64,000 nucleotides of DNA from a virus: IMG/VR virus record IMGVR_UViG_3300025000_000005, positions 1 to 64,000 of that record, one strand, 5' to 3'. Under the pieces are notes generated by a model. The model did not search any database and had not been told where the DNA came from. It saw nothing but the letters and a program-made list of their open reading frames with translations. The translations under genes and the position numbers were made by a program. Positions 10,938-15,051 of this stretch are shown piece after piece. Positions within the stretch are counted from its first letter, which is position 1. Every line of letters begins with the position of its first letter.

Positions 10938-11765
10938 ATGTCAACAAGCAAGATAGAATGGCTGGCAGATAAAAGCGGTAAGCCCGGAGTCACCTGGAAT
11001 CCAATATCGGGATGTTCCCCTATAAGCCACGGCTGCCAAAACTGCTACGCGGCCCGTATGGCGAAGCGTCTTGCCGGCCGATGCGGTTACCCGGCAGATG
11101 ATCCGTTCCGGGTGACACTGCATCAGGATAAAATGAACGAACCGTTGCTATGGAAAAAGCCGAAGCGAATCTTTGTTTGCTCCATGGGGGACCTCTTCCA
11201 TGACAATGTGGCTGACAGCGCCCTCGACCAGATATTCCAGACCATATTCACGTCGATGCGACACACATTCATAGTGCTCACGAAACGGCCCGAGAGGATG
11301 CTTGACTATTTCAACCATTTTTTATGGGGGAAGATTCCGGATAATCTATGGGTCGGCGTAACGGCAGAGAATCAGGAATGGGCCGATAAGCGGATACCGA
11401 TTCTGATGGAGGTCCAGGCTAAGGTCCGTTTCGTTTCGGTGGAACCCATGCTCGGGCCGGTGGATTTAACGCCGTGGTTACCGCATTTCCTCGATTTTTC
11501 GTACACGACCGATCCGCCGCGGCTTGATTGGGTTATTGTCGGCGGGGAAAATGGGCATAGAGCAAGGCCGATGAACCTTGAATGGGTGAGGCTATTACGC
11601 GATCAGTGCGTTCAAGCCGGAACCCCGTTCTTCTTTAAAGGGTGGGGGGAATGGATGCCCGGAGACGAAAAGGACCGGGTCGATCACTTCAAGGTCGGGA
11701 AAAAGAGATCCGGTCGGATGCTCGACGGAAAAGAGTGGAATGAATACCCGGAAGGAGGCTCATGA
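10938..11765 (+). CDS. Phage Gp37/Gp68 (DUF5131) radical-SAM-like protein
   Basis: SKIEW, TWNP, GCSPISHGCQNCYA, FVCSMGDLFH, LTKRPER, WVIVGGE, PFFFK. Confidence 0.9.
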   Translation: MSTSKIEWLADKSGKPGVTWNPISGCSPISHGCQNCYAARMAKRLAGRCGYPADDPFRVTLHQDKMNEPLLWKKPKRIFVCSMGDLFHDNVADSALDQIFQTIFTSMRHTFIVLTKRPERMLDYFNHFLWGKIPDNLWVGVTAENQEWADKRIPILMEVQAKVRFVSVEPMLGPVDLTPWLPHFLDFSYTTDPPRLDWVIVGGENGHRARPMNLEWVRLLRDQCVQAGTPFFFKGWGEWMPGDEKDRVDHFKVGKKRSGRMLDGKEWNEYPEGGS

Positions 11766-12477: not shown

Positions 12478-13097
12478 GTCTCATGAACTAACCCCACGAG
12501 CAGGGACTTGAAAGCCATCAGTAATTTCCTCCATCACGTCAATCCACTCAGTCTCATGTACAAACCCCACGAGCAGGGATTGAAAGCCTTTCCCCTTGTC
12601 CTTTATCGTTTCCGGTAACAAGTCTCATGAACAAACCCCATGAGCAGGGGATTGAAAGCACCTGGAATATTTCCGGAATAATTTGTTTGAGCCGGTCTCA
12701 GAAACGACTCCTCTGAGCAGGATACTGAAACTTGACCCATCATAAAACATCAAACAACGACAACACAAGTCTCAGAAACGACTCCTCTGAGCAGGATACT
12801 GAAACCGGATACCGGTGGGCAACTTTACAAAACGAGAAGTTGTCTCAGAAACGACTCCTCTGAGCAGGATACTGAAACGGGCGGAAACCAAAAGAGATAG
12901 TTGAAGCAGTTAAGGTCTCAGAAACGACTCCTCTGAGCAGGATACTGAAACGCCGGACAAAAAAAACAATCCGCACTTGCCCCAAAAGTCTCAGAAACGA
13001 CTCCTCTGAGCAGGATACTGAAACAGAATCTACCTTGAAAAAAATTGCGCCGCCGATGGGGTCTCAGAAACGACTCCTCTGAGCAGGATACTGAAAC
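12478..13097 (-). CRISPR. CRISPR array: 9 repeats (36-37 nt), 8 spacers (35-37 nt), two repeat types
   Basis: Six identical GTCTCAGAAACGACTCCTCTGAGCAGGATACTGAAAC at 12695, 12769, 12842, 12915, 12988, 13061; three variant repeats of type GTCTCATGAACAAACCCCATGAGCAGGGGATTGAAAG at 12478, 12551, 12622. Minus orientation inferred from leader position and cas gene strand. Confidence 0.97.
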
Positions 13098-13251
13098 AGT
13101 ATACCTAAAAACCGTTTAAAAAGCAACACATTATCCATGGTTTTTCGAGAGGTCGGCATCCCGGAACCCACCATACCGCCGACCTCTCAAATAGAGCCCA
13201 CCATTTTTAAACAAAATTCAAAAATAACAACGGCATAAACTTTTCGAGCGC
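13098..13251 (-). promoter_or_regulatory. CRISPR leader
   Basis: AT-rich, lies between the cas stop and the conserved array end; perfect 11-bp inverted repeat GAGAGGTCGGC (13147-13157)/GCCGACCTCTC (13178-13188); TTTTCGAG direct repeat. Confidence 0.7.
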
Positions 13252-15051
13252 TCACGGGGTTTCCGGCGGAACATCACCGCTCGAATCGAGGTAGGCGGTC
13301 AAAAGATTCTTGGACGCCGCCCAATCCTGATCGTAGACCTTCCCGCACTTGCTGCACTGGACCATGATGTTCGTTTTCCGGCCCGGCTTGATAGTCCCGC
13401 CGCAAAACGGGCATGTTTTTGTGATATTCTTCGAGTCTAACTTGACGTGTTCCTTCCCGGCAGAGCGCATGGCCCGTATGGTTTCCGTCCTAAAAGTCGA
13501 AACGGAAGCGAGATCGCTCATTCTCCTGATATGGTCGTCATTGTCCGCGCCCTCCTCGGCTTTCTTCTTCCCCTTCGTTTTTCGGAGGTCAAAATCCTCC
13601 TGGATGACGACATCATATTCTTTTGAAAGTTTGAGCGCAATCTTCCGGTATTCGCACAATCGCCGGCCGCGGATACGGTCCGACAAATTAGCATGCCATT
13701 GCCATAAATGCTTGTCCTGTTTGCGCCACGCCTCAATTTTGTTAAACGCCTCTTCGTCTCCATGGAATCGAAACTCGGGCGGGTCCCCTTCGCGCCGGAA
13801 TCCTCTGCCACTCCACTGAATCGCTACCGATGCCAGTTGAGCCTCAGATTTCCAGCTCATCATCATTTTTGTCCTCTCCGATAGCCACGGCGGAACGATA
13901 TCGGCGTTTGCCTTTTTCCACTCATTGAACCATGCAACGGTTTCATTGAAATTTTTCTTCCGGATGCCTTGAAGCGATGCCGCCTTTTCGTTCGAGACGG
14001 TATATTCACTTCCCAGCAGGATCTCTTCTTCGACTCCCCGGCTGTCAAGCATATAGGCTATGCGTGTCGCCAGACCCTTGGCCCTCCATCCTATATTTAT
14101 GGCGACACAATGCCCGGTCCTTTCAAGCGGGACCGAACAATCTTCCCGGACGGTGACAGTTAAGGACCACACGAATTTATCGGCCAGCTTCGAAACATGT
14201 ATTGAAACAGACTTGATTTCGGCTGATTCCGGGATTGGTCTATGCATGACGATGGGTATTTCAAGCCAAATGGGAACGGTCTTTTTTTCTCCGGAACCTA
14301 TCCGGATTCGCGCTTTGGTCCTTTTCAACCGCCCTCGCTCTCCCCTGGACGGGTGAGTCCAAGCATCGGCTGGCAATCGGTCGATCTGAAAATAGTTGTT
14401 GGACCCAAGAAAAGCCTGAGTGATGTTCATGCCGCCTTGTATTTGGCATGTCCACCGGCCAACCCGCTCAAATCGGTGGAATTGAAGCTCGGGTCTTTTT
14501 TGGCCATCCTCTACTTGCGTCTTCATGATTGCCATTCGAGCCGTTTCGAATGAATCCATTACAGCCAGATAGTTGCCCCAATAAAGGCCGTTTTGGGCAT
14601 ATTCTTGACGAATGGCCACGTTCTTATCGTATCGCTCACCATCCAACTCGTGGAGCTGAGGCTTAACCGTGTCCTTCACGAATGCCCATATCTCTTTCTT
14701 TTCGGCTATCAGGGGTTTCTTTTGCGCCTTCAGTTCGACAATCTCGGCCTTGAGGTCGGAAGGCGTGCCTTTGATGCCGTCCTGGCGCCCCTTCTTGATC
14801 TCGGTTCGTATCTCTTCTGTCCTCACCTTGATATCCTCTATTTGCTTCCTCAGAACCGGCAACCGGGCATCGGCACCATCTCGAATAGCCCAGTATTTTT
14901 CCGTAAAAACCTTGTCGGCTTCCACGAGCGCATTCCAGAAACGGTTTTGAAGGCGAAGCTGCTCCATGGCGACCTCGCTTTCGACAGCCGTTTTTAGCGG
15001 GGATCCAAATTTGTAGACTCGGGCACTTTTGTCGGACTTTGACCTTTTCAT
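13252..15051 (-). CDS. cas12m: Type V-M CRISPR effector Cas12m (V-U1/C2c4), RuvC predicted nuclease-dead
   Basis: 599 aa; colinear Cas12m motifs GLYWGNY, FHRFE.VGR..CQIQ, MHRPIP, VAINIGWR (RuvC-I), WKS..QL, W..QDKHLWQW, IQEDFD (RuvC-II), CPFC/CSKC zinc finger, YDQD (RuvC-III); adjacent to the array. Confidence 0.88.
   Translation of the reverse strand: MKRSKSDKSARVYKFGSPLKTAVESEVAMEQLRLQNRFWNALVEADKVFTEKYWAIRDGADARLPVLRKQIEDIKVRTEEIRTEIKKGRQDGIKGTPSDLKAEIVELKAQKKPLIAEKKEIWAFVKDTVKPQLHELDGERYDKNVAIRQEYAQNGLYWGNYLAVMDSFETARMAIMKTQVEDGQKRPELQFHRFERVGRWTCQIQGGMNITQAFLGSNNYFQIDRLPADAWTHPSRGERGRLKRTKARIRIGSGEKKTVPIWLEIPIVMHRPIPESAEIKSVSIHVSKLADKFVWSLTVTVREDCSVPLERTGHCVAINIGWRAKGLATRIAYMLDSRGVEEEILLGSEYTVSNEKAASLQGIRKKNFNETVAWFNEWKKANADIVPPWLSERTKMMMSWKSEAQLASVAIQWSGRGFRREGDPPEFRFHGDEEAFNKIEAWRKQDKHLWQWHANLSDRIRGRRLCEYRKIALKLSKEYDVVIQEDFDLRKTKGKKKAEEGADNDDHIRRMSDLASVSTFRTETIRAMRSAGKEHVKLDSKNITKTCPFCGGTIKPGRKTNIMVQCSKCGKVYDQDWAASKNLLTAYLDSSGDVPPETP

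Follow-up and report, generated by a model that had tools for sequence, protein, structure and literature searches.

Two isostructural repeat variants in a phage-borne Cas12m array, with the probably older variant at the trailer end

A Cas12m-associated CRISPR array in a groundwater phage carries repeats of two sequence variants, denoted A and B, that keep the same fold. On balance, we consider it probable that the three leader-distal repeats (B) at the trailer end of this type V-M array are older units, that the leader-proximal repeats (A) are a derived variant that expanded later, and that one Cas12m loads both. The stretch of DNA analysed (64,000 nucleotides, hereafter the window) is the first 64 kb of the 90,778-bp complete virus record IMGVR_UViG_3300025000_000005. 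The carrier of the array is a complete 90.8-kb P1-like groundwater phage, whose record has 127-bp direct terminal repeats at its ends and whose portal protein is ~36% identical to the portals of phages P1, P7, and D6.

Nine repeats run on the minus strand from position 13097 to 12478, downstream of cas12m, and are separated by regular spacers of 35-37 nt (Table 1). Array and cas12m are read from the same strand, with each repeat providing the 5' handle of the spacer after it. An earlier note on this DNA had described six identical proximal and three diverged distal repeats, and both the sequences and the coordinates that it quoted were exact. It had also stated that the distal repeats resemble each other, and the B copies are indeed only 3-4 positions apart, compared with 11-13 of 37 positions from A. 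Neither a chimeric repeat nor irregular spacing was found at the A/B junction, where the sixth A repeat is identical to the first five, B7 is fully B-type, and the spacer between them (S6) has a regular length. The model score of B8 (40.5 bits) is the highest in the phage genome. The guide of the last repeat, B9, would come from flanking phage DNA if it were used. A gene of the DUF5131 family (phage Gp37/Gp68-like) and two small genes with no family assigned converge on the trailer end of the array (window 10938-11765).

Table 1 Features of the Cas12m locus and of the second array in the phage genome. Positions are those of the window, except for the mini-array, which lies outside it.
Feature	Position	Strand	Description	Basis
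cas12m gene	13252..15051	-	599 aa; Asn at RuvC-I (VAINIGWR)	PDB and Pfam matches
Leader	13098..13251	-	154 nt, from the cas12m stop codon to the first repeat	Read directly from sequence
A block	12695..13097	-	Six identical 37-nt repeats and spacers S1-S5 (36-37 nt)	Direct reading
A repeats	12695-12731, 12769-12805, 12842-12878, 12915-12951, 12988-13024, 13061-13097	-	37 nt each; stem pair U10-A23, inner pseudoknot pairs AGA/UCU; 32.5 bits per copy	
Spacer S6	12659..12694	-	36 nt, regular; junction marker between the last A-type handle and the first B-type repeat	
Repeat B7	12622..12658	-	Handle for S7; stem C10-G23, pseudoknot AUG/CAU; 39.0 bits	
Spacer S7	12587..12621	-	35 nt; purine fraction 0.74	
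Repeat B8	12551..12586	-	36 nt, one-base deletion in the 5' part; pseudoknot GUG/CAU with G.U wobble	
Spacer S8	12515..12550	-	36 nt; purine fraction 0.67	
Repeat B9	12478..12514	-	Last repeat; all nine pairs kept; 36.4 bits	
Second mini-array (C1-C3)	70,962-71,140	+	Three Cas12m-type repeats between a 179-aa gene and a tail gene; outside the window	

The effector had been named as Cas12m, and this assignment was confirmed by structure matches of the 599-aa protein to PDB 23vw_A (Cas12m, E = 1.3e-76), 8pm4 (1e-28), and 8hhl (Cas12m2, 1e-24). The protein also has a Pfam match to the Cas12f1-like TNB domain, and its match to the TnpB family was below the cut-off. Identity to characterised orthologs was only 21-30%, and identity to PDB 23vw was ~35-40% as judged by eye from the alignment, the tool giving no figure. 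The RuvC-I codon (window 14095-14097) encodes Asn; the same column in 15 homologs at 34-47% identity is occupied by Asp in 11, Asn in three, and His in one. N-D-D RuvC variants have been described among Cas12m (PMC11013384). An identical Cas12m is encoded by 12 public contigs, and further homologs are 45-47% identical. No other Cas12m in IMG/VR was closer than 31% identity.

Within the leader, a GC-rich hairpin is accompanied by an AT-rich stretch whose last bases are TATACT. A promoter scan flagged no sigma-70 site in the leader, and a TTGCTT-17-TATACT arrangement recognized by eye scores below the scan threshold. A whole-genome search found neither Cas1 nor Cas2 in the 90,778-bp phage genome. 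The full-model search of both strands over the same 90,778 bp returned exactly 12 repeat copies, all in the same sense. As to a tracrRNA or anti-repeat, no reverse-strand repeat copy was found in the model search of both strands of the whole genome, which a very diverged anti-repeat could escape, and the next match scored 10 bits.

The crRNA of Cas12m2 has a 36-nt repeat-derived scaffold in which a short stem is stacked on a pseudoknot formed by C(-22..-17) and G(-8..-3); a further pair joins G(-23) to A(-2), and the first 7 nt are disordered (PMC10442227). GoCas12m has the same compact triplex-pseudoknot core (PMC11013384). Mapped onto the 37-nt repeat, this scaffold places the stem at columns 10-12/21-23, the pseudoknot at columns 15-20/30-35, and the G.A pair at G14 and A36, which are near-invariant in the family alignment. 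The A repeat and each of B7, B8, and B9 keep all nine pairs (3-bp stem and 6-bp pseudoknot), and the repeat has a GAGAC-type 3' end adjoining the guide. The earlier note had proposed two possible pairings. Both covary in ~180 distinct related repeats, but they are not alternatives, since one is the stem and the other the pseudoknot of the published scaffold, in which both are present together. Three pairs of its upstream pairing (CCCC/GGGG versus TCCT/AGGA) stand, at columns 10-12/21-23 (UCC/GGA versus CCC/GGG), whereas the fourth fails because column 20 belongs to the other helix, the pseudoknot.

Two sets of related repeats supported this fold. Among 113 distinct repeats listed from a DNA-pattern search of viral contigs and bacterial MAGs, 98.7% of cells were paired, a level reached by none of 500 shuffles. 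Pair 10-23 in these 113 listed repeats was G-C in 102, C-G in seven, U-A in two, and a wobble in two, and was never unpaired. In the 69 distinct repeats found via Cas12m homologs, 99.5% of cells were paired, all six pseudoknot pairs covary, and the stem pairs, which were not part of that search model, were paired in 100%. Single-sequence fold energies were all within 1.3 sd of shuffles and are not significant, so the case for the fold is made by covariation and the published structure. It should be noted that in the A repeat (window 13061-13097 and its five identical copies) the 5' GUUUCAG and the 3' CUGAGAC are complementary. The minimum-energy fold of the free A repeat is an end-to-end hairpin that competes with the pseudoknot, whereas the B repeats have no full end-to-end complementarity and adopt either the stem or the pseudoknot hairpin. 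Whether the 5' tail of a repeat covaries with its 3' end was also considered, and a by-eye comparison across loci showed that this does not generalise.

A and B7 differ at 11 columns (1, 7, 9, 10, 19, 20, 23, 24, 26, 30, and 31). Six of these differences make up three double changes that keep a pair (10+23, 19+31, and 20+30). From A to B7, the two pseudoknot changes turn pair 19-31 from G-C to U-A and pair 20-30 from A-U to G-C. The remaining differences lie in the disordered tail (columns 1 and 7), at the junction (column 9), and in the loop (columns 24 and 26). B8 and B9 have an extra G.U wobble at 18-32, and all 27 pair cells of B7-B9 are paired, only two of them as wobbles. When 11 random substitutions were simulated in 200,000 trials, all nine pairs survived in 0.5%, and the nine pairs were kept with at least three double changes in 0.02%. 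The suggestion that the distal repeats are not simple trailer decay was therefore borne out by the kept pairs and by changes common to B7-B9. Random trailer decay as such was contradicted by these shared changes, the intact pairing, and model scores above those of the A copies.

No near-invariant family column is lost in the B repeats, whose scores with the family model are 36-40 bits, compared with 32.5 bits for A. B is thus closer to the family consensus, and A appears derived. We infer that the three distal B repeats are the older units and that a leader-side repeat changed to the A variant by stepwise change rather than import. The A variant would then have spread as five to six newer spacers joined the array. 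Selection would maintain the fold and not the sequence, with the changes sitting at the scaffold positions that covary freely (one stem pair and the inner pseudoknot pairs) and in the 5' tail and the loop. Because the fold and the conserved positions are kept, one Cas12m most likely loads both handle variants.

The second mini-array of the phage contains intermediate repeats. C1 is B-like. C2 combines an A-type 5' half and an A-type stem (U-A) with a B-type pseudoknot (AUG/CAU), and has five differences from A and eight from B7. In C3, pair 10-23 is a U.G wobble, which is classically intermediate between a U-A and a C-G pair. The earlier notion of two clean repeat families was thus overstated, as C2 and C3 are intermediates in the same phage. 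The leader of the main array has no similarity to the sequence upstream of the mini-array, and the trailers of the two arrays are likewise unrelated.

Related Cas12m arrays varied in a similar way. These arrays lie directly downstream of a Cas12m homolog and in the same orientation (15 of 21 loci with a homolog detected, and the protein-homolog loci). Repeats were polymorphic in 18 of the 21 related arrays. In 12 of these, the phage array and its sister mini-array included, repeats diverge increasingly from the first one with distance from cas12m (rho at least 0.75). Among 192 changed pair cells in the related arrays, 180 were kept (129 by a one-sided change and 51 by a double change) and 12 were broken. 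In the phage array, 9-10 scaffold differences arise at one step; most other related arrays have at most eight differences and change gradually, and one fully heterogeneous array reaches 11. The phage array is therefore exceptional only in the degree and sharpness of its step. Its description as a discrete hybrid did not hold, since a gradual continuum, the outcome named beforehand as contradicting it, was found in related arrays. The native MsCas12m array on an Allomeiothermus silvanus plasmid (NC_014214.1; L192:5262-5731) has seven repeats that are all different and keep the pseudoknot pairing. A Desulfosudis oleivorans MAG (L091:5900-6210, minus strand) carries an array of only ATG-type repeats beside a 34%-identical Cas12m, and B7 has four differences from its repeat and 11 from A.

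Outside the phage's own records, no A- or B-type array was found in JGI metagenome contigs with a pattern covering A, B7-B9, C1, and C2; the sole other match was a single unrelated repeat. A genome scan, whose matches were mostly single chance matches, likewise gave no A-type array elsewhere among the matches listed.

Misassembly near 12660-12695 had been named as a possible refutation, and it was rejected because the A/B junction is spanned, free of mismatches, by contigs from two groundwater samples. In each of these samples (runs X1 and X3), which may include the source sample of the record's assembly, a 19,123-bp Logan contig spans 11800-12723 with 0 differences. It crosses B9, B8, B7, S6, and 29 nt of the sixth A repeat, covering all A-specific scaffold positions (columns 9-31). 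The runs of a second study held identical pieces of the locus at low depth. Short Logan contigs with A-block spacer sequence were also present in the groundwater runs, and the short-read graph was broken at the identical A repeats, as expected.

In favour of divergence in place are the intermediate repeats of the phage genome itself, the polarity seen across the family, the clean and regular junction, and a flat GC profile, in which no break was found around cas12m or the array. A leader-side block with a derived repeat state is also the commonest pattern of CRISPR repeat mutations (10.1101/2022.05.19.492656). Several observations count against it. Eleven differences arise at once, with no intermediate unit inside the main array, and no wobble intermediate leads from U-A to G-C at pair 19-31. 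B7 has fewer differences from the repeat beside the 34%-identical Cas12m of the Desulfosudis MAG than from A. The intermediates are in the other array, which has an unrelated leader, and their order fits no simple polarity. The spacers shift in purine fraction near the switch, from 0.25-0.43 in S1-S5 to 0.53 in S6 and 0.67-0.74 in S7-S8 (window 12515-13060; S1-S5 versus S6-S8, five versus three, p = 0.036, n = 8). Finally, a phage without an adaptation module would have gained six precisely spaced units.

These observations leave recombination as a possible, though tentative, origin. A module of cas12m, leader, and A repeats, or a leader-side segment only, would have come from a related phage or plasmid and joined a resident B array; the old spacers would have been kept, and both handles would still fit the effector thanks to the conserved scaffold. 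Such an event would account for the sharp step (0, 0, 0, 0, 0, 0, and then 11-13 differences), and the switch at pair 19-31, the proximity of B7 to the Desulfosudis repeat, and the change in spacer composition also fit it. Exchange is a plausible route to new guides for a phage without adaptation genes, and a preprint has reported portions of arrays moving from one genome to another (10.1101/2022.05.19.492656). However, there is no chimeric junction repeat, the spacing is regular across the junction, and GC content does not break around cas12m or the array. In addition, the JGI metagenome contigs held no A- or B-type array beyond the phage's own records, the same genome contains intermediate repeats, and the pattern is often seen in gradual form in the family.

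Expression within an array is generally lowest in the trailer units. The B units are located at the trailer end, B8 is one base short, and the three copies differ from one another, and they could on these grounds be a dead relic, i.e., decayed units that are not made into guides. We regard this as improbable, since the B repeats keep 27 of 27 pair cells with only two wobbles, retain every near-invariant column, have spacers of regular length, and score above the A copies, and random decay retains all pairs in only ~0.5% of trials.

The mean purine fraction of the coding strands of the phage is 0.546, and the newer guides look antisense-like and the older guides sense-like. None of S1-S8 had a self-match in the phage genome above shuffled controls, and a search of the INPHARED phages gave no spacer target. 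IMG/VR contained no exact 20-mer of S1, S7, or S8. The first 20 nt of S3 occur in four contigs, in unrelated genes (portal protein and 2OG-Fe(II) oxygenase), and were judged to be chance matches. When 401 genomes sampled from the phylum to which the Desulfosudis MAG belongs were searched with the array by BLAST, only partial matches of 25-27 of 36 positions were obtained, at about the chance rate. The earlier idea of regulatory and defensive guides thus found nothing in its support. That A and B handles form two functional classes differing in processing, loading, or silencing strength is the least probable of the readings weighed here: the competing end-to-end fold of the free A repeat, which the B repeats lack, and the different spacer composition of the two blocks would fit it, but the spacers give no sign of self-regulation, no fold energy deviates from shuffles by more than 1.3 sd, many related arrays show the same variation in scattered form with no division into classes, and position in the array accounts for the split without function.

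The Cas12m fold, compensatory change in CRISPR repeats, and block patterns of repeat mutations are already known, and the phage array does not reveal a new kind of system. In the literature, we found no description of structure-preserving handle polymorphism inside Cas12m arrays. A preprint of September 2026 presents a Cas12m with a single repeat consensus as the first one encoded by a phage (10.64898/2026.09.14.751636). The phage system resembles those of Cas12m2 (8HHL/8HHM/8HIO, PMC10442227) and GoCas12m (8PM4, PMC11013384) in its 36-37 nt same-strand repeat with the handle 5' of the guide, in its 3-bp stem stacked on a 6-bp pseudoknot with a G.A closing pair and a dispensable 5' tail, and in having a non-canonical RuvC-I residue, no adaptation genes, and no tracrRNA-like copy found. 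Unlike them, it has two isostructural handles ~30% apart in one array, intermediates in a mini-array, and a P1-like phage as its carrier.

The layout of the array also resembles the pattern termed Pattern 1, in which the derived state is common to the leader-side units and the ancestral state remains at the trailer, as expected from duplication of the first repeat at each acquisition (10.1101/2022.05.19.492656). However, Pattern 1 usually involves one substitution, whereas the phage array changes at 11 positions in one step, with six compensatory substitutions, and the phage has no adaptation module. A degenerate terminal repeat is comparable in its leader-distal position, but the phage has three such units with shared changes and with all pairs and conserved positions kept. 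The native MsCas12m array is alike in handle polymorphism, so this trait is not peculiar to the phage; that array is plasmid-borne with scattered variation, whereas the phage array is split into two blocks. Medvedeva et al. reportedly described in 2019 virus-borne mini-CRISPR arrays that are used against related viruses. Spacer T2 of the mini-array matches the adjacent tail gene of the phage itself at 27 of 35 positions (72,068-72,102), far above shuffled controls, and this match fits a guide from a sister phage. The main array instead adjoins its own effector.

Our study adds a clear case to a poorly described trait, namely phage and plasmid V-M arrays with polymorphic repeats and without adaptation genes. 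The locus may be seen as a natural experiment on how Cas12m reads its guide RNA, as one effector lies beside handles that differ at 11 of 37 positions with every pair kept. In ~180 related repeats the same few pairs vary freely, suggesting handle positions open to engineering, and a possible use would be multi-guide Cas12m arrays with non-identical, recombination-resistant repeats. It is also conceivable, but doubtful, that phage Cas12m arrays are kept sequence-diverse but fold-identical on purpose and that the A/B step reflects modular exchange of guide cassettes between phages. If so, non-identical handles would guard an array unable to re-acquire spacers against recombinational spacer loss. 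The effector would then tolerate ~30% handle divergence, so that stem pair 10-23 and the inner pairs of the pseudoknot could be designed freely.

Two related loci had further peculiarities of arrangement. In the Desulfosudis oleivorans MAG, a third repeat is found ~130 nt further on, after the palindrome TTGTTACCTTGTAACAA, and the palindrome occurs again after that repeat; this third repeat may be a separately promoted unit. In a viral Cas12m array (L156:2712-4047; also in L157 and L159), normal units are mixed with compact units of 46-48 nt that leave ~10 nt between repeats, and 15 of the 15 repeats in L156 differ.
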